Of a DNA stretch of 64,000 nt, positions 23,347 to 48,172 are shown in pieces. The position numbers and the translations under genes were made by a program. Each line of letters opens with the position of its first letter. The first letter of the stretch is position 1. The notes beneath the pieces were generated by a model. That model made no database searches and was not told the origin of the DNA. It saw only the letters and a program-made list of their open reading frames with translations. The stretch is from positions 96,081 through 160,080 of the forward strand of contig JADFDP010000001.1 in NCBI GenBank assembly GCA_018262835.1, written 5' to 3'. The DNA comes from Candidatus Aminicenantes bacterium. Its GTDB lineage: Bacteria; Acidobacteriota; Aminicenantia; UBA2199.

Positions 23347-23403
23347 CCGCCCCCCGCTGCCTGACCAACAGCAGGGAGCCTTGACCACTCCGGAGCGAAC
23401 TTC

Positions 23404-26400
23404 CTACTGTTTCTGATCTTCGACGATGATCTGGATCTTCACTACATCCAATGACCCTGAATACAGAGTTTGGTTTTTATCCACCTTCAGCAGTTCCCGC
23501 CAGAGGTCCGGCAGGTTGTTCATGATGAATTCGCCGTTGCTGCCGCTGCTGCACTCCTTGTCGCCGGCTTTGAGCCGGATGCCAACCAGCCGCGGTTCGT
23601 TCTCATCGCAGCGCCCGTTCCGGTCGTCATCCCGGAAAATGAAACCGCGCAGCCGGTGGCAGGGAACCAACGCATAGGTCAACTCCCGGCGCTGGCTGCG
23701 GCTGGCAAGCTGGGTGGGCGGAGAGATCAGCACCAGGTCCTCCGGGATGGAACGGAAATCGATCTGCACGGCCACGTTTTCCTGGCCAGCCGGGACAAAG
23801 AACCTGCCTTCGGCGTTGCTGCGGAAGAGGCGGCCGCGGTTGTCCTTGAAGCGCATGGCCGCGATGCCGGTTTCGCCGGCATCCTTGCGGCCGTTGAGGT
23901 TGCGGTCGGCATAGACCAATCCCGGGATCAGGTCCTGGGGAAGCAATCGCAACCGGTCGGTCTGGGCAAAGGCCTCGCAATACTCACCTGACGCCGACTC
24001 GGGGCCGAAGGCCTGATAGCCGGTGTAGCCCCGGACCCAGATACTGCCCTGCAGGTAATTCTCCTTGAATTCGCTCGGGATCAGCGCCTGGTAGGTATAC
24101 TGCAGGTAGGAATCCTTCTGCAGGCCCTGGTAACCCCAGGAAAATTCCTTGAACAGGCTCAGATTGGCCGGGAGCTCAGTCCCGGCGAAAACCAGGCTGG
24201 GCGTGAACTCGGCCTTGATGAAAAGCGACGGCAGGTCGGTGGCACTGGCCAGGCCGTTGGGACAGCGGTTTTCCACGCGGACGTTGAAATTCAGCATGTC
24301 TCCCGGCTCGGGATATTCCCGGGGCGCTTCCTTGACCAGCCAGTATTCGGCGGCCGGGAGCGTGCCGTATGCTTCGCTCCAGTTCATGCCCCATTCGCTC
24401 TCCAACAGGTAGGTGAAATAATCCAGGGTGCGCTTGAATTGAAAGTCGTCGTTGTCTTTCGTGGCCGTCAGGTAGAGCAGGATCTGCCAGGGCTGGTACT
24501 GGAAAACCTGGCCGCGGTTCATGTTCTCCACGCGGGTACTCAATGGCAGGCCGGTTTCATGGTCCCAGATATCGGCCAGTTTCTTCCGCGTCGGGGCCAT
24601 ATCCAGCCCCAGGATATTTCGCGCGACGACCTGGGCCGCGATCCCGGCGAAGTCGCGGGCGCGGCCGGACAGGAATTCTCGCAGTTCCTTTTCGAACACG
24701 GGCCGCAGTTCCTGCGGCGCCAGGGAAATGAAGAGCAGGTCCTGGGCTTTCAACATGCCGGATTCTTTCTCCAGGATCTGCTGCCAGAATGCGTCCGGAA
24801 GCGCGTACTGCAGCTTGGCGACCGTTATTTTATCCGCCTTTTCCCGGCTGGGCAGCATGACCAGTTCTCCGGTTTCATTCTTTTTGAAGGCAGTGAAACT
24901 GGCCGGGACGAAGCCGATGATTTTGAATTGGCTGACCAGTTTTTCCTGCATTTCCAGGCTGGCCTCAAGGCGCTGGCGGTCCGCTCCAGGGTTATTCATG
25001 AATATCTTTTCGGCGACCAGCTTGTTGGCCAGGACTTCGGTAGAGAATTCATTCTTGCTGTCCAGCGCTTCCAGGTTCACCCCGGAGGGCCGGGAGCCCT
25101 TGACCGCCAGCTTGGCCCTCGACAGGAAAACGTCTCCCTGCCATTCCAGGCCCGCATGGCTGTCCAGCAGCAGGCGGACGTATTGTTTCCCGGACTGGTC
25201 CAGGCTGCGGCCCTGCTCGCGGATGACGCGCTCCGCGCTGGCGTCCAGATCCTTACCCAGCTGTTGCAGTGAGAACGAGAGCAATCCGATCTGCGCGGTG
25301 TCGGTCTCGTATTGCGGGGCAAAGACCTTGGTATAGGTGACCGGGAGCAAATTCTCGGACGTCAGGGCCGTGTGCGGGGATTGTACCATGGCGGTCTCGC
25401 TGAATATGGGGGCCATGTCGTCGTAAGACTTGATGAACGTCAGCAGGGGCAACATTTCCTGGGTGAAGGGATAGTTCTTGATCAGGTTCAACGGCGGCCG
25501 CTGCACCTGCAGGTTCGTCTTTTTCAGGAACAGGCCCGTTTCCTCGATGGTGCGGTAGATGACCGTTGCGAAGAGGTCTTTTTCGCCCGGCATCTGGCTC
25601 TCGAACGCCAGGATCAGCGGCGCCAGGGTTTCCAGACCGATCTTTTGCTTGAAATCGGCCTGGGGCTCGGCGAAAAGCCCGATGTCGCTGGAGTAATATT
25701 TTTCCTTCATTTTCGCGAAAAGCGCCGGGAAAATGGTGCCGCCGGCCTTGAAATCCGCATATACCGCCAGGGCGTAAGCGGGCAGATCCGCGGGCATGCC
25801 CTTGCCGGCCAGGAACAGTCCTTCGAATTCACGGATCTTTTTCGCCGCCAGCTCGTCTTCACCGTTCTCTTTCAGGGCCAGGATGAACAGGCATTCCTCG
25901 CGCAGGTTGCCGCTGTCGAATTTCTCGTTGTCAAGGGAAGACAGTTCCGTCCGGAGTTGCCGGCCCAGCGTGGCCGCCTCGGGCCGCCCATCTTTGCCGA
26001 GCTCCACCAGGGAAAGGTACAGCGAAGCCCGGTCGTACAAGTTGGCTTTTTCTTTTTGGCGAACGGCCCGGCCGTCGGCGAATTCCCAGCGTTCAGGCAG
26101 GTCGGCAACGTGGGCGGCGACAAAATCGAGCTTGCGGGCGATCAGGCCGTTCAGCTTGTCCTTGCTTTCCGCTTTTTCCTCGCGGGCAACGGCCTTGTTC
26201 ATGGCCAGCAACTCGAAGGCCACCTGGGCCGGGGTCATGCTGCGCATGGTGTTCTTTTCCTTCCAGCGGCCGATTTCCTTCTGCGGGTAATCCCCGGCGT
26301 AGGAGAGCCACAAGCTGCCGTCGGGCAGGGTCAGTCCCAGGCCGGAATGGAAATACAATTCCTCGACATTGGACAGGGCGTAGTTCTTCAGTCTTTCCCT

Positions 26401-29400
26401 GACGAAATCGGGCAGGCTGCCCTTTTCAAAATCGATGTTCTCCCAAAGATGCAGGGCGGCATAGGAGGCGAACATCGCCTTTTCGGTGTGGAAATACGGC
26501 TCGATATAGGCCAGTGCCAGCTCGGGATACTGGACGAAGCCCATGGGGCGTTCCTCGATGACCAGGCAGCAGCCCGCCGCTTCGCGGCGCAGGATGATGC
26601 AGCAGGTCGCTTTTTCCGATTCGCTGCGCCTGCCGTCCTGGGCGGTGCCCCGCACCTGGGCCTGGTTGCAATAGCGCCCGGGATCGGCGTCGGCCGGAGC
26701 GATCAGGCTGTAGACCAGGAGGCGGGATGTACCGGCCGCCAGGTTGCCGATGTTCCAGGTCAGGGTGGTCGTGCCGCCGGGATCGGCGATGGATTTTCCG
26801 TCCAGGGCAGAAGAACCGCTGACATACTGCAGCGGGGCCGGCAGAACGTCCTCGATCTGCACGTCATCCATGCTGCTGCTGCCGCTGTTGCGGATCTCGA
26901 TCTCAAAGCGGTATATCCCCCCGGGTTGCTGGGCGGGCGGGCAGGTTTTTTTGATCTCCAGCCGCGGTTCACCCAGGAAAGGGCAATTGACGGTGACGAT
27001 ACGGGTATTGTTCTCGCCGTTGCACTCGCAGATCTCGTTGGTCTCGTCGATGACCATGCGGAAGGAATGGGCAACTCCCGGCGTGTAGGTGGCACTGGTG
27101 AAGTCCAGGCTCACCGTCGCGCCGGCCGCGATGGAGATCCTTTTTTCAAAGATCAGGGCGGGCGCTTCATCGTAGATGCGGATCAAGGTGTTGTTGGCGG
27201 CGCTGTTGCCCGAATTGGTCACCTTCAAGGTCCACTGGATGGTGCCGGAAGGCTGGCACTGCCAGGAAATGTCCGCAAAAGCAAGGTCCAGGCAGGCGGC
27301 CTCGATGTTAACGCAGCGGTCGTTGTTGCTGCCGTTCCATTCGCAGATGGCGTCATTGTAATCCGCCTCGATGCGGACGGAAAGCCCGCAGCCGGGCACG
27401 AGCGTGCAAAGGTCCTTGGAGACGTCACGGGAGCGAACGCTGAAGTTCTGGGTGCCGCCCGTGGCGGACATGTTCACTCCGGAGAAGACCTGGGTCCACT
27501 GGTCGAGCACGCTGCCGCGGCAGCCGCTTTCGCCACAAAGGGTGAAACGCACGGCGATATTGTCGGTCAGGGCCTGGCCGCAGCCCAGGTTGGCCAGGCG
27601 GACCGTGCCGCCGATGGTGACGGTGCCGTCACTGCTGCAGGCGGCGTTCAGGTTCGCCGCCTCCACCGTGATATCAGGAATGGCCAGGAGCAGCGTGTTG
27701 CTGCCGGCATTGTTGCCGCCGTCCAATTCGCAGATGGCGTTGTCCGGGTCGATGCTGGCGGTGAAATTGCAGGTGCAACCGACGATGCCGGAGGTGAAGT
27801 TGAAGACCACGTCGCGGCTCTCGCCGGCGGCGAGAGAAATAGTCTGTTCGCTGAAAGTCAGGCCGCAGTCGGAGCTCAAGCGTACCACCACGTTGCTGGC
27901 GTCAGCGCAGCCGGTGTTGGCCACGGTTACGGTGGTGCCGGTGAGGCTGCCGTCGCCCAGGCAGACAACGGCGCTGGCCACGGAAGTGATGGTCAGATCG
28001 GGAAAGGGCAGGGTGTAGGTGGTGGAGGCCTGATTGTTGGCGCCGGTGCATTCGCAGATGGCGTTCTGCGAGTCCACGGTCACGGCGATGGCCGGGAAGC
28101 TGCAGACATACGGGGCGACGGTGAACGAGCGGGTCCAGTTGAAGGTCACGCTGGAGGAGGCGCCCGGGGCGATGGGCAGGGTGCCGCCCAGGTCGGCATT
28201 GTAAAAGAGCTCGGAGGTCCAACCCCGGCCATCGTCCACCAATATGCTGAAATCGCTGTTAATGGCATTGCCGCCGCTGTTGCGCATGGTTACGGTAATG
28301 GTGTTGTTAATGGTGGTGTCCGCGGCGCAGTTCGTATTTGCGGTTACGTTTACAGCCTCAAGGTCGAGACAATTCGAGGTTTTATCGGTACAATAGGTAT
28401 TGTCGGTGCCATCCCATTCGCAGATGGAGTTGGTGTGGTCGGTTTCGATATGGATGGACACCAGGCAGTTGAGGGTGTCGGTACAGAAGTTGGCGGCGAT
28501 ATCCTGCGGCTGGATGGTAAATGTCTGGGTACCGCCGGTAGCGGCGATGCTTACTCCTGTAAATATCTGGGTCCATTGGTTAACCTGGCTGCCGCCGCAC
28601 CCAGGGCTGTTAAACAAGGTAAAACGCATGGGGATATTGTCGGTAAGGTTCGGGCCGCAGCCGTTATTGATCAAGGTAACGGAACCGGATACCCGTATCA
28701 CGCCGTCATCCAGGCAGGTCACCAGCAGTGCCTCATCCTGGATTTCCAGGTCCGGGATGGAAATGTTTTGGGAAGAGGTTCGGGTATTGTTGCCACCCTC
28801 ACATTCGCAGATGGTATCGTTTGGATCGATGACAGCAGTAAAATTACAGGTGCAGGTTACCATCCCGGACGTAAAGGGGAAAAAAACATCTCGTGTTTCG
28901 CCTGCGGCCAGCTCAACGGTCTGATCAGGGAAGGTTAAGCCACAGTCGGATGTGAGTCGTACCACCACGCCGGTGGCGTTGCCGCACCCGGTATTGCTGA
29001 CATTGACCGTGGTTTCGTCTAGGCTGCCGTCGCTGCTGCAAATTACCGTGTTCGCCACGCTATTGACGGTCAAATCCGGGGTGTTTATCGGTTTATCGGC
29101 ACATCGTGAATTATCCGCGCCGTCGCTTTCACAAATACTGTTGGCATAGTCTGCTTCTATGAGGATTGATGTCTGGCAGCCGCTGGAATTGGTGCAAATA
29201 TTGGTGGTAATGTCGTGGGAGGTTATGGCAAAGACCTGGGTGCCGCCGCCGGCAGCGATATTGACGCCGGTCAGCGTTTCCGTCCACTGGGAGAGGACAT
29301 TTCCCGCGCAGCCGCTGTTGTCATACAGGGTGAAGCGCACCGGCACATCGGCGGTGAGGTTGGAGCCGCAGCCGGCGTTGGCAAGGGCGACGATGCCGGA

Positions 29401-32400
29401 AACGGTGACCTGACCGTCGGCCACGCAGGTTACGCCAAGGGTGTCGGCAGTGACTTCGAGATCGGGGATATCGACCGCCTTGTTGTCGGCGCAGCGGGTG
29501 TTATCGCTGTCGTCGCATTCACAGATGGTGTTGGAGTAATCGGCTTCGATCCGGATCGAGACCTGGCAGCCGGCGGAATTGGCGACCAGGTTGGTGGTCA
29601 CGATTTGCGGAGTCATGGTGAATGACTGGGTGCCGCCGCCGGCCGGGATGTTGACGGCGCTGAATGTCTGGGTCCATTGGCTCAAGACATTGCCGCTGCA
29701 GCCGGTGTTGTCATACAGGGTGAAGCGCATCGGAACATCGCTGGTGAGGTTGGAGCCGCAGCCGGCGTTGGCGAGGGTGACGCTGCCGGAAACGGTGACC
29801 TGACCGTCGGCCACGCAGGTTACTCCAAGGGTGTCGGTAGTGACTTCGAGATCGGGGATATCGACCGGCTTGTTGTCGGCGCACCAGGTGTTGTTGGTGC
29901 CGTCACATTCGCAGATGCTGTTGGAATAATCGGCCTCGATCCGGATCGAGACCCGGCAGCCGGTGGAGCTGAGGCAGAGGTTTCTGCTGACGGTGTGGGG
30001 GGTAATGGCGAACGCTTGCGTTCCGCCTCCGGAGGTCATGTTGACACCGGAAAGGGTTTGGGTCCACTGTTCGATGATATTGCCACTGCAGCCGGTGTTG
30101 TCATACAGGGTGAAGCGCATCGGAACGTTGGCGTTGAGATTGGTGCCGCAACCGCTGTTGGCCAGAGTAACATTCCCCGAGATCTGCACCTGACCGCCGC
30201 CGCTGCAGGAGATGGCCAGGGTGTCGGATTGGACGGTGATATCGGGGACGGTCATGGTGAAGGGAGCTGACGACTGGCTGTTGTTGGCTCCGTTGCACTC
30301 ACAGATGGCATTGTCGGGATCGATGGAAGCGGTGAATGTGCAGGTGCAGGAGGCGCAGACCGGGGGATAGGCGAAGGTCAGGTTGGTGCTGGCGCCGGAT
30401 GCCAGGTTGATGGTCTGGTCGGTGAAGGGGATGCCGCAATCGGAGGTTACGCGGACGACGACGCCGTTGGCGGCTCCGCAGCCGATGTTGGATACGTTGA
30501 CGGTTGCGGTTCCAGTCAGGTTGCCGTCGCCAATGCAGGTGAAGGCGGGGGTGAGGCTGTTGACCCGCAGGTCGGGAAGCGTCAGAGCATAATCTTCGCT
30601 GCGGGTGTTATTGGCGCCGTTGCATTCGCAGACCGTGTTGGTCGGATCGACCGTGGCGGTGAAGGAGCAGGTGCAGTCGGTGCAATCGGCCCAGGATCCG
30701 CTGACCGGGAAGGTGACGGTGGTCGAGGCGCCGGCGGCGAGGGTACCGGTGACCGTCTGGTTGCCGAAGGCCAGGCAGCCGTCGCTGGCCAGCGAGACTT
30801 GGAAATTCGCGGCCGTTCCGAATCCCTGGTTGCGCACCGTGACAGCGATGGAACCGGAGATGGAATCGGCGGCACAGGAGATATTGCTGAAATCGATATC
30901 GGTCACCACCAGGTCGGGCAAGGTGGTGGCGTAGGTTTCGATCCGCGTGTTGTTGTTGCCATCGTATTCGCAGATGGCGCTGGCCGGGTCAACCGTGGCT
31001 GTAAATTGGCAATTCTCATCCGTGCAGTCGGCCCAGGAGCCGCTGATCGTGAAGGTCAACGTGGTGGAGGCGCCGGCCGCCAGGCTGACCACGGTCTGGT
31101 TGCTGAAAGCCAGGCAGCCGTCGGTCGCCAGGGAGACCTGGAAATTGCCGGCCGTGCCGCAGCCCTGGTTGTTGACTGTGACCGTGACATTGCCGGAGAT
31201 AGCGTCATTGGCGCAGGTCACATTGCTGAAATCGATGTCCGTGATGATCAGGTCCGGGATGGGCGAAGTGTAGGCCGCGGATGCCAGGGAATTATTGGTG
31301 CTGTCGCATTCGCAGATCACATTATCCGGGTCTGCAGTAGCGGTAAAAACGCAGGTACAGCGCGAACTATCGGGCGTAAAGGAGAAGGTCAGGGTGGTGG
31401 AAGCCCCGGCAGCCAGGGAAGGGATGGTCTGGTCGGTGAACGTGTAGCCGCAATCGGAGACCAGCCGCACCGGGATGTTGCTGGCCGTACCGCAACCGTT
31501 GTTGTGGACCGTGACCTGGACAGAGCCGAAGAGACTACCATCCGCCGTGCAGCTGATAGATGGGGTAACGGCCGTGATGCGCAGGTCGGGTACGTCCACC
31601 GTTTTGTTGCTGCAGCGGGCATTATTGCCGCCATTGCATTCGCAGATGGTGCTGGGGGCCGGGTCTACTTCCAGATGAACCGAGACCTGACAGCCGGTGG
31701 AGTTGGTGCAGATATTGGAGATAATGTCGCGGTTGGTGATGGTGAAGACCTGGCTGCCGCCGGCAGCGATATTAACCCCGGGAAAGGTCTCCGTCCACTG
31801 GGCTAATTGCGTACCGGCGCAGTTGATATTGGAAAACAGGGTGAAGCGCACCGGCAGGTTGCCCACCACGGCCGCATTGCAGCCCGTGTTGGCGATGGTG
31901 GCCGTTCCCGAAACGCGTATTTGACCGTCCTGCAGGCAGGCAACGTTGAGCGCGTCGCCAGTGACCTGCAGGTCGGGAATAGACACGGTCTTGTTTGGTG
32001 CGCAGTAATTGTTATTGCTGTCAGTGCATTCGCAGATAGTGGCGTTGTAATCGACGCTTATCTCCAACGATACCAGGCAGCCGGTTGAATTCACGCATAG
32101 GTTACGATTGAAAGTGCGGTTGATGGCAAAGGTCTGAGTGCCGCCGGCTGGGATATTGACGCCGGCCTGGTTGAAGAACAAACTGCCATTGTTGCCGCTG
32201 CACGTATCGTCATCATTGAAGATGCGGATGCGAATGGGGATATTGGCCACCAGGTTGGCTCCGCAGCCGTCGTTGGCGATGACCAGGTTGCCCTGGATGC
32301 GGATCTGGCCGTCGGCGGAACAGGAAATGGCCAGGGTTTCGCTGTCGACGCGCAGGTCGGGGATGGTGAAGGTTTTATCGCTGCACAGGGTGTTGTCCGC

Positions 32401-35400
32401 GCCGTCGCACTCGCAGATGGTGTTGGTGTAGTCGGCCTCGCTGCGGATGGATAACTGGCAACCCGAAGCGCTGCTGCAGGCATTGCCGGTAATGTCGTAA
32501 TTGGTGATGGTGAAGGACTGGCTGCCGCCGGCGGCAATGTTGACGCCAGTGAAGGTCTGGGTCCATTGGGCCACCTGGCTGCCCGTGCAGCCGACGCCGC
32601 TGAACAGGGTGAAGCGCATGGGCACGTCCTGGGCTAGGGTGCCCGAGCAGCCGGCATTGCGCAATGTCACATTGCCTGAAATTCTGTATTGGCCGTCGGC
32701 GACGCAAGTAATGGCCAGCGTATCGCTGGCCACTTCCAGGTCGGAGATGGCCGGGGAGTAGGATTGCGGGCCGAGAGAGTTGTTGCTTTCGTTGCATTCG
32801 CAGACCGTGCTGCCGCTGTCCACGGTGGCGGTAAAGTTGTAGGTGCAGGGGGAGCAATCGGGGTTCCAGGAGGTCACGTCGATGGTGACCGTGGTCGTGG
32901 CGCCTGCCGCCAGGTCGCCGGCATAGGAGCCGCTGCCGGTCCAGCCGTTGCCGTCGCTGACCTGTACGGTGAAGCCGCCATAGGCGATGCCGTCGCCCTG
33001 GTTGCGCACCGTGACTGTGATGTTGCCGCTGAAGCTGCCGTCGGTTGTACAGGAGATAACCGGCGAGATCGCCGTGGCGATCAGGTCGGGCATTTGCAGG
33101 GTGGCGGCCGGTGCGTTGGCCCAGGCGGGGGTGGTGCAGTCATAGCCCTGGGTATTCGGGTTGTTGTCGGTTGCGTCGCCGCTGGTGCCGCAGCCCCAGA
33201 TAGCGCGGATGTTGTTCTGGCGCAGCGCCGCCGCGCAGTTCGCCTGGGGAGCGTCGGGGCTCAATTGGGCGGTGATGGTGAACGAGGCCGTGCCGCCGCT
33301 GGCGGCCAGGTTGTTGATCTCCCAGCCGTAGACCTGTCCGCCCATCCCCGTTATGCCGGCCGAGCCGCCCACGTAGGTGAGCCAGTCGCCCAGGGTGTCC
33401 TCGATGCGCACCACTTCGGCGACGCCCGTGCCGCTATTGGTCACAATGATGTTCCAGGTCTGGTTGGCGCCGCAAGCCACCTGGCTGCTGACCGGTGTCT
33501 TGCTGACGGTCAGGGCGGGATAGAGGGCGGTGATCTGCTGGTTGGCGGGCGTATTGTACTGCGTGTCGCCGCAGCAGTCGTAGTAATATAGGTTAAAGCC
33601 CAGGTTGGCGGTGGTATAGCAGCTCGAGCGCACGGAAAAGACCAGGGTCGCGGTGTCGTTGCCGCCTGCGGCCTGGATCAGGTCGCACAGATTGCTGGCC
33701 GTGCTCGAGGTACTATAAAAGATCAGCTGGTTGCCGCTGACCGTGGGCTCAGGCGCGGGGTCGGTGAGGACACCGCCGCAGGTGACCGCGGCGCTGTTGG
33801 CGATGTAGGTGAGACCGGCCGGCAGGGTGATGACCAGGTCCACATGGCTGGCGTCGGTGGGGCCGGGGTTGTTGATGGTGACGGTCAACTCGGTGGAATC
33901 GTCGCAGGAATTCAGGCTGATGGGATTGACCGCGATGTTCAGGAAACCGACCGACGGCTGGCGGGTCTCGGTGCGCACGGCGGAAACGGCGATGGAACCG
34001 AGACAGAGGTTGTTGTCCGGAGGATCGACGCCGGGCTTGGTGGCGGAACTGCCGTCGGCATCGCCGCAGCCCCACCAGGCGCGCAAGGTGTTGTCCAGGT
34101 CGGGGCTGCAGGGCGAGCTGTCGGTGTGGGCGGTCAGGGTCAGGTTGACGCTGGTGCCAGTGGGGACATTCTCCAATTCCCAGGTCACCCTCTGGCCCAC
34201 ATGGGTGCCGTTGTCCGAGGTATAGGGCGCATCCCCGGTGGAAGAAACATAGGTATAGGCGGCGTCCATGATGTCTTCCACCCAGAGGATGGGCATGGTA
34301 TAGCCGCTGTTGTTGGTGACGGTGATATTCCAGGTAATGTCCTGGTTGCAATCGATCGGTGTATTGGCCCGGGTCTTGGTGACCGTGATCTGTGGAGCCC
34401 GGAAAGCCACGGTAAAAACGCTGTTCGCGGTGTTGAACACCTGGCCGCAGGGGTTTTCATAGCTGGTGGCCACGGTGACGTTGCCTCCGGCAAAAGGGCA
34501 ATCAGCGGCCAGGTCGTACTCGATCTCGATGGTGTCGCCGGGATCGGCGGTGGCCAGCCCCGGGATCTGGGTGCTGGTCCATTGCAGGGGGGAGACGGTG
34601 GGGCTTGGGTCATAGGCGGCATTGGGCCCGTTCCAGCCGCCGCCGTTCAGGCGCCAGCGGGTGCTGCCGGATACATATAACAAACCGGCCGGCAGGGTTT
34701 CCGTGACCTGGAGGTTATAACAGGTGGTTTGCCCTGCGTTTTTAAGCGTAATCATTCCGCTGGGACTGGAACAGGCATCGACCGGAGTGGTGACCACGTT
34801 GGTATTGATCAGCAGCGGCCGGGGGATGGCCACCGTGGAATTGTCGCTGACCGGGACTTGGCAGTCCGAGCCGCCGCAGCCCCAGGAGGAGGTGGCCGCG
34901 TTGGTCAGGTTGTCGCAGTCGACCAGGAGCGCCTGCAGGGTGACTTCGCGGCGCTGGCCGGCGGTCATCTCGCTGATGGCGATGGTGCAGCCGTTGATGG
35001 CCGCTCCCAGGTGGTTCTGGTCGGCGGTGACAGTCACTCCGGTCATGTTGTCGACCGTGGCGCTCGAAAAGTTGAGGCCGGCACCCAGCACATCGTCCAG
35101 CCAGACATTGTAAGCCGAGCCGCTGCCGCGGTTGGTCAAATAGATCTTCCATTCCACCATGTTGGTGGTGGCGTAGTATATTTCCGGGGTTTTCTCGATG
35201 AGCAGGTCGCCGCTCAGTAGAAGGGCCGGAGTATCGCTGGCCGTGGCTGAGCAGGTGTCGTCATAGACGGCGTCATCGTTGCAGTTGTCGTCGAAGTAGG
35301 CGGTAGCCGACAGCTCGCTGCCGTTGTTGCAGCGCTTCTGGACGGTCAGCCGGATCACCGCGTTCTGCCCGGAACCGTTGAAACCGTCGGCGAAATACCA

Positions 35401-37731: not shown

Positions 37732-37732
37732 T

Positions 37733-40225: not shown

Positions 40226-40242
40226 GTGGTTCTCCTCTGCGC

Positions 40243-42609
40243 TTAATAAAGGACGACCAGCTTGAAATAGCCGACCGTGGAACGGTAATCCGCGCCGACC
40301 AGCTGCCGGTCGCGGTAATCGATGATCTCGGCTCCCAGGCCGACGCGGACATGGCGCTGGACCAGATATCCCAGCTCGGCGGCCAGCGCCTCCTTGCGGT
40401 TTTCGATCGGCCCCCAGATGCGCAGCAGCTTGTAGTTGGCCAGGAATTCGAGCTTGCGCGAAAAAGTGATCTTGGCGCCTTGGACCGAGGCCAGGGAGTT
40501 GCTCTGGATCCCGTCATAGGGAGGATACAGTTCGAAGTTGGTGTCATAGCGCCATTGGGAATAGAGTGAAAGCCACTGCCTGGCGCGCCACAGCAGCCTG
40601 AAGTTCAGCTGTTCTTCCGATCTTTCCTGCAGGGAGACCGGGGCGATGTCCCGGCCGATCTGCTTGTAGTAATTGAGGCTCAGGCTCATGTCCTTGAGCG
40701 GCGAGCCGAACAGGAACAGGGACCAGAGGCGGCGGCGTCCCTCGCGGCCGTTGTTCTGGTTCAACTGGAGCTCGTACCGGCCCATGGCCCGGAAGCGCGG
40801 GGTTTCGATGCCGCCGCCCAGCGACAGGATGTTGTTTTTGATGGTCATTTCTTCCTGGCTGCTGACTTCGCGGCGGACGCGGGAGTCGATGAAGAAGCTT
40901 TTGCTGATGTGGCGGCGGATGCCCGCTTCGTAGATGTCGGCGTCAAGCAGCCGCTGGCCGTTTTTTTCGTCCAGGAGCTCCTTCTGGTAGCTCACGAAGA
41001 TGCCTTCGCTGCCGGTCAGGTACTCGAGCAGGAACGAGGCCGAGTGGCCGATGGTGTCGCTGGCCACGTCCAGCCGGTCGTTGAAGGTCTGGCCGCGGTA
41101 ATCGACCTGGAAGAAGCCCGCTCCCTTGGCGCCGAGCCACAGCCGCTGCCGCCCGCCCAGCAGGAAATCCCTGATCTCGGTGTCCTTGACGATCCGGGGC
41201 TTGTCAAAATCGCTGTCCATCTCGATCTTTCCCCAGGCCTTTGTTTTTTCATTGTTCAGGAACGAAGACAGGTAGAGCGTCCGGGTGCGCAGGTCGTTGG
41301 CCAGGGATTCCTTCTCGCCCCAGCCGCCGGACAGTACCAGCTGCCGGTTCTCCCATTCCAGGAAGGAGTGGTATTCCTTTTCATCGACCGCCAGGCTGGC
41401 CAGGGAAAAGGGATACAGCTCGGCGCCGATGTTGCGGGTGAACTGGAAGGGGGAAAGGAAGATATTCCTCTCGGCGTAGGCGGGGAAGATCTGGTACAGG
41501 CTGTAACCGTATTTCAGCTGCTGGTTGGCAAAGAGGGGGAAATCGGCGTTGATCGACCAGGCATTGAAGAAAAGGCGGAGCTGCTTGCTGAAATTGAGGA
41601 TGCCGCCGCCGAAAAACCCGTTCTGTTCCTTCTGCTGCGGCTCGGAACTCAGTGAGAATTCTCCGAAAAAGGTCAGCGGCCGCGAATCGACATTGACCCC
41701 GAAAGTGAAAATACCGCGGCGGCTGTCCCAGGCTTTCCCCAGGCCCAGGGTGGCGTCGGCGTCGGCGATGTACGACAGGTTGAACTTGATGAACTCCCAG
41801 GGAGCGGCGAACGCCCTGACGCCGAGAACATCGCGGGTGAAGCGGCCGGCCAGCGATTCGAACTGGTAGCTGACCCTGACCCAGACGGGATTTCCCAGGG
41901 AGTCGATAGGAAAGACCGGGCTGGTGAAAATGATCGCTCCCCGGTCGTAATCGATAAAGTAATCGCGGTTGCGGACCATAGGGGTGTAGCCGATCTCCAG
42001 GCCGGGGTTGCTGGCGCTGCGGGTCACCAGCTGGATGTTTTCGCTGCCGCGCAGGATGGGCGACTCGTTCAGGTAATATGGGCCGACGCCGAGGTCCGAT
42101 GGGAATTCCTCGATGCCCGCTTCGCCGCGGCTCACGCCGGCGAGGACCTCCACCCCGGCGTGCTCGCTCTTTTTCCCCAGAATGCCGCCGCGGAAAGGGT
42201 GGTAGTAGCGGGAGAACACCGAATCCAGGAAAACGCCCAGGCGTTGGTCGCCCAGGGAGATGTATTCCTTTTCATTGCCGATGGTGAGCAGGAAATCGAG
42301 AGGCGGCTCGGTGATGCGATTCTCGGGATCGTAGTCCAGGTGGCCGCTGACGGCGTATTCGCCGTGGTTCAACGTGCCGTCGACCATGAAGGAGGCCCTC
42401 TCCCGCGTCGAAAAATCGGCCGGCAGCCCCAGGTCGCTGTAGCGGAAGCGGAACTCATTGCCTTTCACGCTCGCCCAGTTCAGGCGCAGCATGGCGATGC
42501 CCATCAGGTACAGCTTGTCCTTGACCGGTGGCTCGGTTTTAACCTCGTTTTTTTGAAAACAGGAGACTGAAAAGACCAGAATGGAAAGGGTGATGATAAG
42601 TTTTTTCAT
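40243..42609 (-). CDS. Large (788-aa) predicted outer-membrane beta-barrel protein, family not recognised
   Basis: It has a signal peptide (MKKLIITLSILVFSVSC), long stretches of alternating-hydrophobicity strands rich in Y/F/G/N/S, and a C-terminal ...GYFKLVVLY with a terminal aromatic. The ATG at 42607-42609 has a GGAG RBS. The tracked start at 42615 is TTG. Confidence 0.6.
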   Translation of the reverse strand: MKKLIITLSILVFSVSCFQKNEVKTEPPVKDKLYLMGIAMLRLNWASVKGNEFRFRYSDLGLPADFSTRERASFMVDGTLNHGEYAVSGHLDYDPENRITEPPLDFLLTIGNEKEYISLGDQRLGVFLDSVFSRYYHPFRGGILGKKSEHAGVEVLAGVSRGEAGIEEFPSDLGVGPYYLNESPILRGSENIQLVTRSASNPGLEIGYTPMVRNRDYFIDYDRGAIIFTSPVFPIDSLGNPVWVRVSYQFESLAGRFTRDVLGVRAFAAPWEFIKFNLSYIADADATLGLGKAWDSRRGIFTFGVNVDSRPLTFFGEFSLSSEPQQKEQNGFFGGGILNFSKQLRLFFNAWSINADFPLFANQQLKYGYSLYQIFPAYAERNIFLSPFQFTRNIGAELYPFSLASLAVDEKEYHSFLEWENRQLVLSGGWGEKESLANDLRTRTLYLSSFLNNEKTKAWGKIEMDSDFDKPRIVKDTEIRDFLLGGRQRLWLGAKGAGFFQVDYRGQTFNDRLDVASDTIGHSASFLLEYLTGSEGIFVSYQKELLDEKNGQRLLDADIYEAGIRRHISKSFFIDSRVRREVSSQEEMTIKNNILSLGGGIETPRFRAMGRYELQLNQNNGREGRRRLWSLFLFGSPLKDMSLSLNYYKQIGRDIAPVSLQERSEEQLNFRLLWRARQWLSLYSQWRYDTNFELYPPYDGIQSNSLASVQGAKITFSRKLEFLANYKLLRIWGPIENRKEALAAELGYLVQRHVRVGLGAEIIDYRDRQLVGADYRSTVGYFKLVVLY

Positions 42610-42645
42610 CCGCAACTCCGGCTGATGATTTGCGACTATCTTAGT

Positions 42646-42674
42646 ATTATATAAAACAGCTAAAATTTCTTCAA
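42646..42674 (-). promoter_or_regulatory. Near-consensus sigma70-type promoter in the AT-rich gap upstream of the large OM barrel gene
   Basis: On the minus strand it reads TTGAAG (42669-42674), a 17-nt spacer, then TATAAT (42646-42651). Confidence 0.5.
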
Positions 42675-42692
42675 CTAATTAAATCCAAACAA

Positions 42693-43139
42693 TCAGAGAT
42701 GGATGAATATCCCGGCGCTGATGCGGGTCTTGTTCAGATCGGAAAAATGAAGGAAGCGCAGGTCGGCGCGAAGGGAGAACATGGAGGTGAAGAACAGATG
42801 AAAGCCGCCGCCGATAAAGGTATAAAAATTGTAATCGCTGAATTTGAAATTTAGTTTTTCAAACTCGCCTCCGGCTCCCAGGGCGGCGTACGGCGCGAAA
42901 CTCCCGAATTTGGGCCGGAATTTGACGGCTGCGCTCAAGCTGTTCCAGCCCGTCTCGCTGATCCGGTAGCCTTCAAATTCGAATTTGAGCATGGGCACGA
43001 AGGTGCCGGAACCGGCCGACAGGCCGTAGAAAAAACCGGAAGGCTGGCGGATGGAGCCGGCGATCAATCCTGCGTCCAGGGCGAACGCGTTCATGGCCAG
43101 GAAAAGAAAGCCCAGCGAGAAAACCGTTTTTTTAATCAT
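42693..43139 (-). CDS. Small (148-aa) outer-membrane beta-barrel protein (OmpW/OmpX-size, 8-strand type)
   Basis: It has a signal peptide (MIKKTVFSLGFLFLAMNAFA) and alternating amphipathic strands with G/Y/F. Its ATG overlaps the upstream gene's end by 8 nt. Confidence 0.55.
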   Translation of the reverse strand: MIKKTVFSLGFLFLAMNAFALDAGLIAGSIRQPSGFFYGLSAGSGTFVPMLKFEFEGYRISETGWNSLSAAVKFRPKFGSFAPYAALGAGGEFEKLNFKFSDYNFYTFIGGGFHLFFTSMFSLRADLRFLHFSDLNKTRISAGIFIHL

Positions 43140-44496
43140 TGTTTTTTCCTGTTTTTTGCAGCAGCGGCCTGCCGTAGTAGTCTATTTCCAATGCCGGCCA
43201 TTCTTTGCTGATATAGAGAGAATAGTTTTTCTGGAAAAGGGGGAAAATGAAACCGTCGTTGATGATCGCCTCGCTGATGCGGGCGATCTGCTCCATCAGC
43301 AGCTCCTGGGAATTGCTGAATTTTACTTCATCCAGTTCGCTGAGCATGCGCAGGGTCCTGGCGTTGAATTGGTTGAAACTTGACTCCTTCAGGATGCGGC
43401 TGATTTTTTCTTCGGCGGGAACTTTTTTCTGAAAGATCTTGTCGATTAGAACATACTGAATGGCCGCCGAATTCAGGAATGCCATAAACTGACTGTCATC
43501 AATGAACAGGGTCTCGATCTTGAAGTTGCTGCTTTTCAAAAAAGCGGTCAGGTCTTTTTCCAAGTTGGAGAGAGAAGCCAGGATGTAAAGCTTGATGTCG
43601 GAGGATTTCAGGATGGAGGCGGTTTTTTGCGGGGAAAGGGTTTTGATCCGGATGGAGACCGGCGATTCCTCGTCCGCGGTCAGCGTGTGCAACTCCCTGT
43701 ATTTGAATCCCGTGGCTTCGTTGAATCTTTTCAACAGAGTGAAAAGGGCGATCTTGGTATTCTGGCCGATATCGCCTTGCAGAAAGCACAGGTAGATGTT
43801 CTGGTAAATGCCGGAATCGAATTCCCGGAAGTTGTCCTTGAACTGGTTCGGGTTGGACAAAAAAATGTCGGGCAGCGGGTTTTCGGCAAAAGTGATCCTG
43901 ATTTTGTCCAGGTAACTCCGCCCTCCGGCATAGAAGGGATTGGCTTTTAACATGAGATGGTGGTTCTTTTCCCACTCCTGCGGATAAAAAAGTCCGGAAA
44001 ATGACTGTTCGTTTTCAGCCAGCACCACCAGTTCCGGGGCGGTGAGCAGGCTCAGGATATCCGGGGTATCCGCCAGCAGCTCGATTCCGACCTGGTTGTC
44101 GCTGGCGCGTATGTTCTTGACCGTTTTGTTCAACTTGCTGGCTGCGAAAAGATCCAGCCCCATGAATATCTTCAATGACACCTGGATGTTTTTGGAGGTC
44201 AGCGGCTTGCCGTCGGAAAAACTGAGGTTGTCCTTGAGGATCAGGTTCAGGGTTTTGCTGGCGGCGATGTAGCGGTATTCCTGGAAGACATTGCTGAATA
44301 TCTCGCCGTCTTTTTTCAAATAAAAAAAATTTTCATAGATCAGGGAGTAAAAGATCAGGTTGGAATAATTGGCGGTGTTCAGGTTGAAGGAAGCCGGTTC
44401 ATTCAACCGGATGTTGATCTCCCCCCCGTAATAGGGTTTGATGGCGAAAATCAGCGTCAGCGCCAGGGGAAGAAGCAGCCATTTCCCTTTAGCCAT
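43132..44496 (-). CDS. Family-5 (peptide/nickel type) solute-binding-protein-like periplasmic protein, with no ABC partners nearby
   Basis: The start is set at MAKGKWLLLPLALTLIFA (ATG 44494-44496), which overlaps the upstream stop by 8 nt. The SBP_bac_5-like N-terminal region reads GGEINIRLNEPASFNL...LIYENFFYLKKDGEI..LSFSDGKPLTSKNI. The tracked 611-aa ORF extends upstream into the neighbouring gene. Confidence 0.7.
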   Translation of the reverse strand: MAKGKWLLLPLALTLIFAIKPYYGGEINIRLNEPASFNLNTANYSNLIFYSLIYENFFYLKKDGEIFSNVFQEYRYIAASKTLNLILKDNLSFSDGKPLTSKNIQVSLKIFMGLDLFAASKLNKTVKNIRASDNQVGIELLADTPDILSLLTAPELVVLAENEQSFSGLFYPQEWEKNHHLMLKANPFYAGGRSYLDKIRITFAENPLPDIFLSNPNQFKDNFREFDSGIYQNIYLCFLQGDIGQNTKIALFTLLKRFNEATGFKYRELHTLTADEESPVSIRIKTLSPQKTASILKSSDIKLYILASLSNLEKDLTAFLKSSNFKIETLFIDDSQFMAFLNSAAIQYVLIDKIFQKKVPAEEKISRILKESSFNQFNARTLRMLSELDEVKFSNSQELLMEQIARISEAIINDGFIFPLFQKNYSLYISKEWPALEIDYYGRPLLQKTGKNND

Positions 44497-45835
44497 TGCG
44501 TTTTCCCCAAAACTGGACCACGAAGCGCTCCGGGTCGCCCCGTTTTTGCCAAACCCCCGTCCAGAATCCCCTGATCTTCTGCCAGACGCCTGCCGAGACA
44601 AACTGTATTTCGCCTGAAATTTTTCCCGTGTATACCGGTCTCTGGCCGCCGTTCTGGATGTCATAAAAAAACAGCTGATCGGAAGTGCGCGAGTAATCGC
44701 TGACGGCCAGCCATTCGCCCCCCAGGGCGGCCAGGGAAGCGCCCCTCTTTTCGGGTGAGGGAATTTTTTCTTCAAATTCCGAGGTGAACAGATGGTAATT
44801 GTAGCTGCGGTCGATGAGGTGTACGCCCTGCAGCTGTCCCTCCCGGATGGAAAAATCCAGGGCCATGGCCGGGGTGATTTTTTTTTCATAGATACCCGAT
44901 CTGTTGGCGGGATCGCTGAAAGGCATGAAATAAATTTTGTCCTTGAAATAGTTCTTGCCTTCTTCATAGCGCCCGCCGACCAGGTATGGGTTCTGGTTTA
45001 AAATGAGATATTTGCAGGGAACAAAATCGATTTTCTGGATTTCCTGCCACTGGCCGTCATGAAAGGCCATAACCTTGGCGGCGGGAGAAAAGTTATTTCC
45101 GGCCGTTAAAACAAGCCCCTGGCCGGTTGGCAGCAGCAGGAGCTTGCCTTCGTAATGAAGCACCGGATAAACCGGCCGCGTCCATTCCAGTTTGATCTGG
45201 AAGGACTTCTCCAGCCGCATTTCCCTGGCCAGGTAAACGACGATCTCGTCGGGGTAGTAAAAAAAATATTGCTCTTGCCCGTCGTCGCCGGTGATGGACT
45301 GGATATCCATCAGGTTCTTTTTGCTTTCAAATTCAAGCAATTTGGAAAAACCCAGCTCGGAAAAAGCGAAATTCCTGGCATTCAATAATTCCATTTCTCC
45401 TTTGCTGAGGGCTTCTTCAAAATATTTGACGGCGACGATTTTGTCCTGCAGGCGGGAAAAAATGGTCAGCCCAAGGCCGGTTTTGCTTTTGTTTTGAATT
45501 AATTTCAGGTCCAGCAGGTAGTGGAGGTCATCGACCCGACTCAGGTTGAATTCCCCCCGCCCATCGGCGAAATTGACCAACAGGTCGGAGACGAGGATGT
45601 TTTTTCCATTTTCCAGGCGAGAGACCAGCATTTGATAAATCTTTTGCATTGCCGTATCGCTCAGTTCCGAATCATTCTCGAAGCGGATGACCGCCACCCG
45701 GATATCGAACCTGTTTTTAAAAAATTCGTCCAGGAAAGCAGCGCTTTCCGCAATCAGGGCTTCGGCGCTTTGCTGGCCAAAGGCATTGCCGCAATACAAA
45801 AAAAGCAGCAGCAGCGAGCAGATCACTTTTTTCAT
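44489..45835 (-). CDS. Secreted 448-aa protein, function unknown
   Basis: It has an ATG and a signal peptide (MKKVICSLLLLFLYCGNAFGQQ). The N-terminal VAVIRFENDSELS resembles the TolB-N/LpoB/CsgG-type FEN motif, and the rest is beta-rich. Confidence 0.6.
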   Translation of the reverse strand: MKKVICSLLLLFLYCGNAFGQQSAEALIAESAAFLDEFFKNRFDIRVAVIRFENDSELSDTAMQKIYQMLVSRLENGKNILVSDLLVNFADGRGEFNLSRVDDLHYLLDLKLIQNKSKTGLGLTIFSRLQDKIVAVKYFEEALSKGEMELLNARNFAFSELGFSKLLEFESKKNLMDIQSITGDDGQEQYFFYYPDEIVVYLAREMRLEKSFQIKLEWTRPVYPVLHYEGKLLLLPTGQGLVLTAGNNFSPAAKVMAFHDGQWQEIQKIDFVPCKYLILNQNPYLVGGRYEEGKNYFKDKIYFMPFSDPANRSGIYEKKITPAMALDFSIREGQLQGVHLIDRSYNYHLFTSEFEEKIPSPEKRGASLAALGGEWLAVSDYSRTSDQLFFYDIQNGGQRPVYTGKISGEIQFVSAGVWQKIRGFWTGVWQKRGDPERFVVQFWGKRNG

Positions 45836-45845
45836 GCGGCGGGGT

Positions 45846-46901
45846 TCACTTTTTTTTCAAGGTGATCTTCAAGTTGAGATTGAGTATGACGTCTTCGGAA
45901 TTATCGGGGATCTCCAGCGTGATGGGCAAATCGATGGTTTTGCGTGCCGGACTGATCTGAAGCGGTCTCTCGCCGGTATCCTCGTCGGTTTTTATTGCGG
46001 CAACCCTGATGGCGTCGGTGTCTTTTTGCTCTTCATCGGCGAAATTCATCTCGGGGATTTCAATGTCCGATTTTTCATTGATCAATTCCTGGGCGTCTTC
46101 CAGGTTGAATATGTCTTCGTCAGCGGGAGCTTTCAGTGAATCCTCGGCGTCCACCATGGGGGAAGAAAGCTCGAAAACCTCTTCCTCCGCGGTGTTGGCC
46201 ATCGGGATCTCCTCGGCCATGTTCTTTAAGGCAACATTTTTTTCCGCGGGCTTGGGAGTGGATGAGGTGATCTCTTCCCGGGAAAACATGACGGTCTTGT
46301 CCTTCTGGAAAATGGACAATTGGTTTTTAAGGTGCAGGATAACCAGCTTGATGATGGCGTGCAGGCCTTCCAGCACGTTCTCCCCGTTTGTGGCCACGGT
46401 CGGGAAAAAGGATTTGTTGTCCTGGTTCAGATCCTTGTTCAGGGTATTGAGGGGCAGGATCTCCTTCAGGTCTCTTTTGTTGAACTGAAAGATCAGCGGC
46501 ATTTTTTCGAATTGCAGGTTGTTGAGTTTCAAATTCTTTTTCAAATTGGTGAAGCTCTCGATGTTCTGTTCGCGCAGGATGACCTGGGAGTCGGCGACGA
46601 AAACCACGCCGTCGGCTCCCTGCAGCACGAGCTTGCGGGTGGTGTCGTAGGCCACCTGTCCGGGAACGGTATAAAGCTGGATCTTCACGGAGTAATTGCC
46701 CAGCTTCCCGATTTCCATGGGCAGGAAATCAAAAAACAGGGTGCGGTCGCCGTCGGTGTCCAGGGTGATCAGCTTGCCTTTGTTCTCGACTTCCTCGCTA
46801 TTGAAAATGTAACGCAAGCATGTGGTTTTTCCGCTCAATGCCGGCCCGTAATACACGATCTTGGCCGTGATCTCCTTGTTGTTGTAATTGACAAAAGCCA
46901 T
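45846..46901 (-). CDS. MglA-family Ras-like small GTPase with an acidic C-terminal extension of about 160 aa
   Basis: Over its first 190 aa or so it aligns by eye with Myxococcus MglA. Shared elements are VNYNNKEITAKIVYYGPALSGKTT (P-loop), GDRTLFFDFLP (intrinsic Arg / switch I), LYTVPGQ (MglA-type G3), FNKRDL (G4) and PTVATNGENV (G5). Confidence 0.85.
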   Translation of the reverse strand: MAFVNYNNKEITAKIVYYGPALSGKTTCLRYIFNSEEVENKGKLITLDTDGDRTLFFDFLPMEIGKLGNYSVKIQLYTVPGQVAYDTTRKLVLQGADGVVFVADSQVILREQNIESFTNLKKNLKLNNLQFEKMPLIFQFNKRDLKEILPLNTLNKDLNQDNKSFFPTVATNGENVLEGLHAIIKLVILHLKNQLSIFQKDKTVMFSREEITSSTPKPAEKNVALKNMAEEIPMANTAEEEVFELSSPMVDAEDSLKAPADEDIFNLEDAQELINEKSDIEIPEMNFADEEQKDTDAIRVAAIKTDEDTGERPLQISPARKTIDLPITLEIPDNSEDVILNLNLKITLKKK

Positions 46902-47398: not shown

Positions 47399-47399
47399 G

Positions 47400-48167: not shown

Positions 48168-48172
48168 GCGGA

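Follow-up and report, generated by a model that had tools for sequence, protein, structure and literature searches.

The 64,000-nt window analysed here, that is, the whole stretch of DNA taken from contig JADFDP010000001.1 of a Candidatus Aminicenantes bacterium, contains a run of seven minus-strand genes that starts with a tailed MglA-type GTPase and ends with a giant protein of 4775 aa. Between the two lie the genes for a 448-aa protein, a protein resembling solute-binding proteins (SBP-like), a putative small outer-membrane protein (small OMP), a 788-aa predicted beta-barrel of the outer membrane (OM), which we call b788, and an 830-aa protein. A first-pass annotation, made from the letters alone, had interpreted the seven genes as a single GTPase-controlled apparatus for surface adhesion or gliding. 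Comparison with related genomes leads us to another interpretation. The block is probably a juxtaposition of two independently conserved units, a Tol-Pal-GTPase operon (module A) and an inserted adhesin-barrel cassette (module B). The genes are arranged as follows.

46901-51998, minus strand: tolQ, tolR, tolA, tolB, pal, cpoB and ssb, a run that directly adjoins the GTPase gene
45846-46901, minus strand: tailed MglA-type GTPase, 351 aa
44489-45835, minus strand: 448-aa protein
43132-44496, minus strand: SBP-like protein, 454 aa, with an ATG start at 44496 (MAKGKWLL...)
42693-43139, minus strand: small OMP, 148 aa
40243-42609, minus strand: barrel b788, 788 aa
37733-40225, minus strand: 830-aa protein
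23404-37731, minus strand: giant, 4775 aa

The seven genes and their six spacings, as first annotated, were reproduced exactly from the coordinates. A 10-nt gap separates the GTPase and 448-aa genes, the SBP-like gene overlaps both the 448-aa gene and the small OMP gene by 8 nt, and gaps of 83, 17 and 1 nt follow between the small OMP gene and b788, between b788 and the 830-aa gene, and between the latter and the giant. A 611-aa reading frame at 43132-44967 (minus strand) in the mechanical list was rejected as the SBP-like gene; it is over-extended and overlaps the 448-aa gene. Tight packing is by itself an ordinary operon feature, and conservation is the informative test.

Two conservation patterns and a cassette insertion

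We sampled about 65 related loci from uncultured Aminicenantes-type bacteria, and in this comparison the block comes apart at the 83-nt gap. A b788-anchored scan of a genome collection gave 30 loci with 10-kb flanks, which were searched by tblastn with all window proteins, and a set anchored on the 448-aa protein comprised six contigs and a metagenome scan of 24 loci. Homologues of b788, the 448-aa protein and the tailed GTPase came almost only from metagenome-assembled genomes labelled Aminicenantes or Acidobacteriota, or from mislabelled bins.

On the barrel side, a homologue of the 830-aa protein directly follows b788 in all 23 loci with enough DNA (tblastn; b788 identity 45-92%), and a homologue of the first 1000 aa of the giant follows in 21 loci, with 45-83% identity in nearly all. 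What lies upstream of this trio varies. No conserved gene was found in the 10-kb upstream regions of 16 barrel-anchored loci, and module A lies upstream in only four of the 30 b788-anchored loci (L001, L002, L003 and L011).

On the GTPase side, every locus anchored on the 448-aa protein has the order (cpoB-)ssb-GTPase-448aa-SBP-like(-small OMP), even where the 448-aa protein is only 36-45% identical. The ssb-GTPase-448aa-SBP order is kept in L031 and L035 even though tolQRAB is not immediately upstream there. The small OMP gene is followed by the genes for the beta and alpha subunits of electron transfer flavoprotein (ETF) and for GDP-mannose dehydratase (GMD) in 11 loci (L035-37, L041-44, L048, L053, L054, L058), and by other genes in L031, L033/34 and L062-64. 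In the window, ETF-beta, ETF-alpha and GMD lie downstream of the giant, and the ETF-GMD-cupin-inositol phosphatase run that comes after the small OMP gene elsewhere is the same series that comes after the giant here. A neighbourhood survey had been proposed as a check on the single apparatus; it recovered b788 next to the small OMP gene, and with it the seven-gene order, only in the window, L001, L002, L003, L011 and L052.

Alignments across the junctions locate the boundaries of the inserted DNA. Similarity to the empty sites ends immediately past the stop codon of the small OMP gene and restarts at the -35 element (TTGAC) of the ETF promoter. The features concerned are the following.

42646-42674, minus strand: promoter-like site TTGAAG-17-TATAAT (10/12 positions match), in the 83-nt gap upstream of b788
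23347-23403, minus strand: right boundary of the inserted cassette, between the giant stop codon and the ancestral ETF promoter, from alignments
23316-23346, minus strand: ancestral ETF promoter TTGACT-N17-TATAAA, conserved with relatives lacking the insertion

The order of the trio is kept with unrelated genes upstream, and this, together with the empty sites, identifies module B as an insertion of about 19.3 kb. In some Aminicenantes lineages, module B (~23350-42690) thereby came to lie between the small OMP gene, the last of module A, and the ETF promoter. GC content rises across the junction from 0.50-0.53 to 0.58-0.63. The gap upstream of b788 shows no similarity to the intergenic region of the relatives' empty sites. 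Neither direct nor inverted repeats of at least 8 nt were found at the two insertion junctions, and the cassette contains no integrase or transposase reading frame.

The promoter that had been noted in the 83-nt gap corresponds to the promoter-like TTGAAG-17-TATAAT sequence, the second-best sigma-70-like match in the scanned 16-kb region, and the site lies inside the inserted DNA. At the other end, the true ETF-beta start is a GTG at 23256, preceded by a conserved GGAGG (23238-23266 region), which gives a protein of 256 aa as in the relatives. The mechanical ETF-beta frame (22486-23388, minus strand, GTG at 23388, 300 aa) is over-extended and contains the conserved ETF promoter.

The two halves also differ in their closest relatives. 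L041-44, the nearest relatives of module A, lack the trio, and their TolB is 89-92%, their GTPase 88-91% and their 448-aa protein 79-83% identical to those of the window. L002, L003 and L011 carry the trio; here the 448-aa protein is only 63-66% identical, with b788 at 87-94%. The Tol-Pal proteins and the GTPase are nearest those of L001 and L041-44, and the barrel and the 830-aa protein are nearest those of L003 and L011. This incongruence suggests that closely related lineages have exchanged the cassette or that it has moved among them independently. The presence of the cassette at the ETF site is polymorphic and incongruent with the phylogeny of module A. The locus illustrates that tight packing on one strand can come from a cassette insertion, and that a synteny check is needed before a single system is inferred.

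The barrel and its DUF11 partners

Module B encodes two repetitive secreted proteins and a barrel. The 830-aa protein consists of a signal peptide, a weak DUF4114-like N-terminus, three DUF11/CLIPPER stretches and a C-terminal SdrD_B and CarboxypepD_reg region; Pfam detects three DUF11 stretches (E = 1.4e-24), one SdrD_B and two CarboxypepD_reg stretches. The giant begins with a signal peptide, continues with DUF11-type domains over about 1500 aa, and then has three further parts, in this order.

26992-33114, minus strand: CARDB array of 17 Cys-rich repeats, residues ~1540-3580, period 105-130 aa, counted by the end motif 'ICEC..NN'
24292-26604, minus strand: non-repeat region of ~770 aa, residues ~3710-4480, Leu/Ala/Glu-rich and presumably helical
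23407-24291, minus strand: C-terminal module, a DUF11-like domain and two SdrD_B/CarboxypepD_reg-like domains

The description of this protein as a DUF11/CARDB giant is borne out by Pfam, which finds seven DUF11 stretches (E = 1.7e-82) and nine CARDB stretches (E = 2e-105). The ~770-aa region has no Pfam match at E <= 1 and no sequence match in the PDB. This presumably helical region sits between beta-sandwich domains near the C-terminus. The C-terminal module gives a weak SdrD_B match in Pfam. By BLASTP, the C-terminus of the 830-aa protein (residues 619-785) matches residues 4585-4741 of the giant with E = 2e-6 (residues 1408-1564 of the 1598-aa C-terminal fragment). The two proteins, as judged from these matches, have a common terminal architecture, DUF11-SdrD_B-CarboxypepD_reg. 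Against PDB sequences, the C-terminal 1598 aa of the giant gave one weak Ig-domain match only. A partial likeness to a PorU2 N-terminus was rejected, as it is far below threshold and lies inside a CARDB repeat. DUF11, since renamed CLIPPER, has been demonstrated to be an isopeptide-stabilised stalk domain of fibrillar adhesins (PMC12617251), and filaments exceeding 100 nm in length can be built from giant DUF11 proteins (bioRxiv 10.1101/2025.08.19.671072).

The b788 protein has a signal peptide with a possible lipobox, and its C-terminal residue is Tyr. The AlphaFold2 model (pLDDT 85.8, pTM 0.73) predicts a large all-beta barrel, in agreement with the first-pass call of an OM barrel. In the model, a first strand (residues 33-50) is followed by a conserved beta domain of about 200 aa (~51-256), which we term the N-domain, and then by 27 long strands with short alternate turns. 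By parity we infer a total of 28 strands and an extracellular or lumenal position of the N-domain. The protein has no match in Pfam or NCBIfam, and neither the N-domain nor the barrel is covered by any curated family; a profile of the N-domain found no useful relative among PDB sequences. Foldseek, one of the checks first proposed for the uncharacterised proteins, returned only generic large OM barrels for b788 (SlpA with E = 9e-11, LptD, MtrB, BtuB, FimD and SprA), with TM scores of about 0.3.

About 100 homologues share at least 44% identity with b788, and 91 of the 92 full-length members of the family have Y, F or W as their last residue. Most homologues (~60% identity; P0010-P0094) are 850-990 aa long and carry N-terminal SH3_3/SH3_4, AMIN or HEAT-repeat extensions, which the b788 of the window lacks. 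At L005 and L027 the counterparts of the 830-aa protein reach 1118-1230 aa and diverge at their N-termini.

An exhaustive search with a b788 profile returned 1928 clusters at E <= 1e-3, 829 at E <= 1e-10 and only 22 at E <= 1e-30; the core common to the matches is b788 residues ~106-285. We surveyed the top 147 profile matches for fusions, of which 102 are at least 1000 aa long. All 102 contain exactly one N-domain, which is followed by 557-589 aa (interquartile range), the figure for b788 being 537 aa. DUF11 or SdrD_B-like segments occur upstream of the N-domain in 83 of the 102 and downstream in none, and a median spacer of 427 aa separates these segments from the N-domain. In P0359 and P0363, Pfam finds the order DUF11 - SdrD_B - Porin_4/OMP_b-brl barrel. 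Another fusion, P0366, also carries discoidin domains at its N-terminus, and it occurs on its own, in a diderm context. Split forms reach further too. The distant standalone barrels P0341 and P0340 (loci L038 and L039), the latter from Candidatus Zymogenaceae, are followed by a DUF11/SdrD_B protein of 748-958 aa and a DUF11 giant.

This is a Rosetta-stone pattern, in which the split between the C-termini of the 830-aa protein and the giant on one side, and the start of the b788 N-domain on the other, corresponds to a linker in the fused proteins. On this evidence the link between barrel and adhesins is real and deep: the trio occurs in 23 of 23 informative loci, the pairing extends across phyla, and single-chain fusions are found elsewhere. 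The fusion proteins (P0358-P0486) mostly end in R, K, Q or E. Truncated gene calls, a different signal for assembly or a short extension of the C-terminus could account for these charged ends. Since the C-terminal aromatic residue is present in 91/92 members of the b788 family and in only 9/102 fusions, we do not use it as support for the latter.

We propose the following model. The two DUF11/CLIPPER proteins would be exported by Sec. Their common C-terminal DUF11-SdrD_B-CarboxypepD_reg module would dock on, or thread into, the barrel via the conserved N-domain, and the ~28-strand barrel would serve as an anchor and possibly as an export pore. The most likely product of module B would be an OM-anchored fibrillar surface structure. 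In other bacteria, the same parts are combined in one polypeptide, in the order adhesin domains, DUF11, SdrD_B, spacer, N-domain and barrel. The first-pass annotation had cast b788 as the OM conduit or anchor of its apparatus and the DUF11 proteins as the exposed components; the functional tie between the barrel and these proteins is supported by all 23 loci and by the fusions, and anchoring itself is what our model predicts. Module B is best filed under OM-anchored fibrillar adhesins with autotransporter-like logic, a novel large barrel, and fused and split forms.

A tentative generalisation, which we regard as possible rather than probable, is that the b788-type unit is a widespread, previously undescribed OM system for the display, and possibly the secretion, of DUF11/CLIPPER fibrillar adhesins, and, independently of this, that the tailed MglA of module A is a spatial regulator of Tol-Pal. 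The display system may come in two forms. One may be a single-chain, 'giant-barrel autotransporter-like' form with hundreds of protein clusters. The other may be a split three-gene form in Aminicenantes and Candidatus Zymogenaceae, in which the SdrD_B/CarboxypepD_reg module of the adhesin plugs into the barrel. If confirmed, the barrel-adhesin pairing would represent a new way for diderms to hold or export very large fibrillar adhesins. The naturally fused and split versions point directly at the interacting parts and make the interaction directly testable. The barrel family lies outside Pfam and NCBIfam, yet it is found in more than 800 sequence clusters.

The Tol-Pal-linked GTPase operon

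The order pal-cpoB-ssb-GTPase-448aa-SBP-like-small OMP is colinear in every locus and is usually preceded by tolQRAB. Colinear orthologues of the tol-pal...ssb run occur in L001-3, L011, L032-33, L036-37 and L041-64. The genes upstream of the GTPase encode TolQ, TolR, TolA, TolB, Pal and CpoB together. In the window, Pfam supports this assignment through TolB_N and PD40, OmpA, and TPR/YfiO; MotA_ExbB, ExbD and TonB_2 were matched in orthologous loci colinear with the window. The conserved order and the overlapping junctions suggest that the GTPase and the three genes that follow it form one operon with pal-cpoB-ssb. Module A is a lineage-wide extension of the Tol-Pal operon. Within the GTPase, two parts can be distinguished.

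46323-46901, minus strand: MglA-type G domain, GTPase residues 1-193
45846-46322, minus strand: acidic C-terminal tail of 158 aa, from an alignment of 9 orthologues

The tailed MglA-type GTPase had been recognised correctly. Residues 1-193 match the solved structures of Myxococcus xanthus MglA (5ymx, 6h17) with E = 1e-58 and that of Thermus thermophilus MglA (3t12) with E = 9e-49, and Pfam and NCBIfam give weak Arf/Ras matches. The sequence contains the MglA hallmarks G51-D52-R53 and T78-V79-P80-G81-Q82 (TxxGQ; Arg53, Thr78, Gln82), where the replacement of Asp by Thr in the PM3 motif is characteristic of MglA (PMC3000849). With its conserved 158-aa extension, the GTPase reaches 351 aa, versus about 195 aa for single-domain MglA. 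The tail motifs LSIFQKDKTVMFSR, EEvFEL and DIFnLeD are conserved among the nine orthologues, down to 36% identity of the accompanying 448-aa protein, as is a basic-ended C-terminal segment, '..PItLeIP....InLnLkI.lKKK'. In Pfam at E <= 1, the tail gives only an insignificant TfuA-like match (E = 0.13). A homologue search with the GTPase gave at least 8000 matches, and the close tailed relatives among those listed form at least 120 clusters of 324-369 aa, four fragmentary or fused gene calls aside.

The ssb gene (46901-47398, minus strand) overlaps the GTPase gene by 1 nt, and the adjacency of the two is kept in all related loci whose sequence covers this upstream part. In one public gene call, P0335 (437 aa), SSB and the GTPase are even joined in a single protein. 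The acidic-hydrophobic motifs of the tail (EEvFEL, DIFnLeD) loosely recall SSB C-terminal tips.

A cognate MglB (Roadblock/LC7) gene lies within about four genes of MglA for 390 of 449 members of the family (PMC4316618). No Robl_LC7 match was found among the neighbours of the GTPase (the cpoB, ssb, 448-aa and SBP-like genes). With no Roadblock/MglB gene nearby, the GTPase is an 'orphan' MglA in the sense of that survey, at least locally.

The 448-aa protein has no match in Pfam or NCBIfam and nothing useful among PDB sequences. Its AlphaFold2 model (pLDDT 85.1) shows an N-terminal alpha/beta domain and a beta-propeller, and in the proposed Foldseek comparison its top match is TolB (7mx5, E = 5e-9, 425/448 columns, TM 0.30-0.33). 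Homology with TolB was rejected on the basis of an hhalign comparison with an alignment of Aminicenantes TolB (7.7% probability), and the architecture alone is TolB-like. The SBP-like protein matches PF00496 (SBP_bac_5) with 41.4 bits, above the cut-off, through its N-terminal 124 residues only (profile positions 17-156 of 368), and has weak NikA-type PDB matches. None of the ~35 module A loci contains ABC transporter genes. The 148-aa protein at the end of module A is a putative small OM beta-barrel. It has a signal peptide and no Pfam or NCBIfam match in the window copy, and its orthologues give sub-threshold OMP_b-brl matches (E = 1e-4 and 0.01).

A tailed, MglB-less MglA-type switch is thus inherited together with a periplasmic protein of TolB-like architecture, an SBP-like protein that lacks a transporter, and a small OMP. 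Module A most likely acts on a Tol-Pal-related envelope process. A role of the GTPase in such a process would have a sole precedent, the action of MglA-GTP on the TolQR-like Agl motor (PMC11135422). The tailed MglA paralogue may be a spatial regulator of Tol-Pal and, as such, a simpler relative of the coupling between MglA and the TolQR-like motor in Myxococcus. With a conserved MglA-type gene inside a Tol-Pal operon, a connection between a polarity GTPase and the machinery of cell-envelope constriction can be tested, which is relevant to the evolution of the Myxococcus gliding motor from Tol-like systems.

Literature searches on MglA and Tol-Pal, on DUF11 or gliding in Aminicenantes, and on DUF11 and beta-barrels found neither module described. 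The gene set had initially been reported as matching no described system; in agreement with this, the barrel, the 448-aa protein and the two gene sets fall outside curated families and described systems.

Alternative readings and known systems

The idea that the seven genes together encode a single apparatus for surface adhesion or gliding, in which the MglA-type switch controls the barrel and the DUF11 proteins, draws on the tight packing on one strand, on the same gene order in five relatives, and on Myxococcus, where MglA-GTP steers a TolQR-like motor that is coupled to an adhesin-bearing OM platform (PMC11135422, PMC9946355). Synteny speaks clearly against it, and a neighbourhood that is not conserved had been named in the first-pass annotation itself as grounds for refutation. 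The two halves are not adjacent in the 11 empty-site loci, which include the nearest relatives, in about 20 distant barrel loci, or in L031, L033, L062-64, L038 and L039. The junction is an insertion scar in front of the conserved ETF promoter, the cassette brings a promoter-like site, and the identity patterns of the halves are incongruent. As for gliding, the annotated part of the window contains no MglB, Glt- or Agl-specific, SprB, T9SS (type IX secretion system) or type IV pilus genes. We consider a single apparatus very improbable, and the empty sites undo the original assignment of the GTPase and its three neighbours to one machine with barrel and adhesins. A more serious question is whether module A is itself a functional unit, or whether the GTPase, the 448-aa protein, the SBP-like protein and the small OMP merely ride behind tol-pal/ssb as inherited Aminicenantia synteny. 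All ~35 loci come from one class-level lineage, the unrelated housekeeping gene ssb sits in the middle of the run, and the tetrad has no inner-membrane component to couple the cytoplasmic GTPase to the periplasmic proteins. Yet colinearity persists at 36-45% identity of the 448-aa protein and without tolQRAB immediately upstream (L031, L035), the junctions overlap or are at most 10 nt apart, and the 448-aa protein has the domain architecture of TolB. Such passive inheritance is possible, if somewhat doubtful.

For module B, two other functions deserve consideration. SH3b and AMIN domains are expected to bind peptidoglycan, and the SH3, AMIN or HEAT extensions of most b788 homologues are expected to be periplasmic. 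Together with the top three Foldseek matches, all of them Deinococcus SlpA complexes (E = 9e-11 to 3e-10), and a weak, sub-threshold SlpA_C match in the distant homologue P0340 (E = 3e-4), this would fit a unit of envelope architecture, in which an SlpA/OmpM-like barrel tethers the OM to peptidoglycan and carries a coat or sheath of DUF11/CARDB proteins that resembles an S-layer. DUF11 giants do form envelope-attached filaments in Chloroflexota (bioRxiv 10.1101/2025.08.19.671072). We find this reading unlikely, as the TM scores reach only ~0.3, there is no SLH domain, the barrel of the window has no N-terminal extension, a ratio of one 4775-aa protein to each barrel would be odd for a coat, and the discoidin-type binding domains on fusion proteins are typical of adhesins. 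Quite unlikely, in our view, is that the barrel serves chiefly as a dedicated pore for secretion, in the manner of an usher or a two-partner system, from which the 830-aa protein and the giant are released into the medium or passed to another anchor. The FimD usher and the LptD and SprA translocon barrels appear among the Foldseek matches, and no other secretion genes are conserved beside the trio; set against this, no chaperone, POTRA or plug families were detected in Pfam or NCBIfam, and the single-chain fusions keep the passenger covalently on the barrel, which argues for anchoring as the ancestral role.

The reading that we prefer, a display cassette inserted behind a Tol-Pal-GTPase operon, has to accommodate several findings that weigh against it. 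Contact of the 830-aa protein and the giant with the barrel, and their surface exposure, are predicted. With generic Foldseek matches (TM ~0.3), the strand count of b788 and the position of its N-domain rest on the DSSP string and the parity argument only. Detectable similarity to the barrel region of b788 is limited to 37 of the 102 long fusion proteins, and as only 9/102 have a C-terminal aromatic residue, not all may be canonical OMPs. On the side of module A, the 448-aa protein resembles TolB only in its architecture, the profile-profile comparison being negative, and the synteny occurs in one class-level lineage only and could partly reflect shared ancestry rather than function. The 83-nt gap contains no convincing terminator, so that the two modules may be co-transcribed by read-through in this genome.

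Comparison with described systems places module B closest to fibrillar adhesins. Like the CLIPPER adhesins (Acinetobacter silvestris B9T28_05395; PMC12617251), the two DUF11 proteins have a signal peptide, are very large, carry DUF11/CLIPPER and other Ig-like repeats in tandem, and end in a presumed module for envelope anchoring, for which the fusions are our guide. The A. silvestris adhesin carries an OmpA-like anchor on the same chain, whereas the candidate anchor here is a separate, uncurated ~28-strand barrel that is fused in other phyla; the giant further differs in its 17 CARDB repeats and its 770-aa, presumably helical region of no recognisable family. The 'grappling-hook' giants (Aureispira GhpA; Litorilinea GhlA, 6596 aa), compared by description, likewise are single beads-on-a-string Ig-like proteins. 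One such protein could span a filament of more than 100 nm, and DUF11 is the repeating unit of GhlA (bioRxiv 10.1101/2025.08.19.671072). GhlA has no signal peptide and comes from a probable monoderm, in contrast to the Sec signal, CARDB array and dedicated OM barrel found here.

The fusion relatives of b788 resemble type V systems (autotransporters, intimin/invasin) in joining a repetitive adhesin-type passenger to an OM barrel in one chain, and the Aminicenantes trio resembles a split version, loosely analogous to two-partner systems. Type V barrels have 12-16 strands, whereas ~28 are predicted for b788, with a conserved 200-aa domain after the first strand. No Autotransporter, POTRA, ShlB or intimin family matched b788 or its fusion relatives in Pfam or NCBIfam. 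Deinococcus SlpA/OmpM provides the best structural matches (TM ~0.3). The likeness lies in the large barrel and in the N-terminal periplasmic extension of most homologues, which could bind cell wall; b788 lacks both an SLH domain and a coiled coil, DUF11 giants are not known to accompany SlpA, and the SlpA_C match is sub-threshold and confined to one distant homologue. Chaperone-usher systems combine a 24-strand usher and its plug with a periplasmic chaperone. The trio contains no Usher or PapD family and no chaperone-like gene, and the FimD match to b788 is generic (TM 0.24). The C-terminal sorting domain of T9SS cargo of the SprB type (Por_Secre_tail, CHU_C) is absent from the giant and the 830-aa protein in Pfam and NCBIfam searches. 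In line with the first-pass annotation, none of the seven proteins matched families of type I or type II secretion systems, TpsB/POTRA, the T9SS C-terminal domain or chaperone-usher systems in Pfam or NCBIfam.

Module A shares with the Myxococcus MglA/Agl-Glt system an MglA-family GTPase (Arg53, Thr78, Gln82), whose gene here lies beside TolQR-type motor genes. It differs in that the neighbours are bona fide Tol-Pal genes (TolB, Pal, CpoB), no MglB is nearby, and the GTPase has a conserved 158-aa tail. The link of the GTPase to barrel and adhesin genes is here an accident of insertion, and the coupling is not conserved. No gliding components were found in the annotated part of the window, the tetrad proteins not having been compared directly with Glt proteins.

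The remainder of the window consists of ordinary chromosomal housekeeping genes (FtsK, LeuRS, HolA and others). Three further genes are of envelope type: a 422-aa OmpA-family protein at 10627-11895 (plus strand), a 473-aa reading frame without a Pfam match at 16608-18029 (minus strand), and a 1086-aa Sortilin/BNR-repeat protein at 59525-62785 (minus strand).

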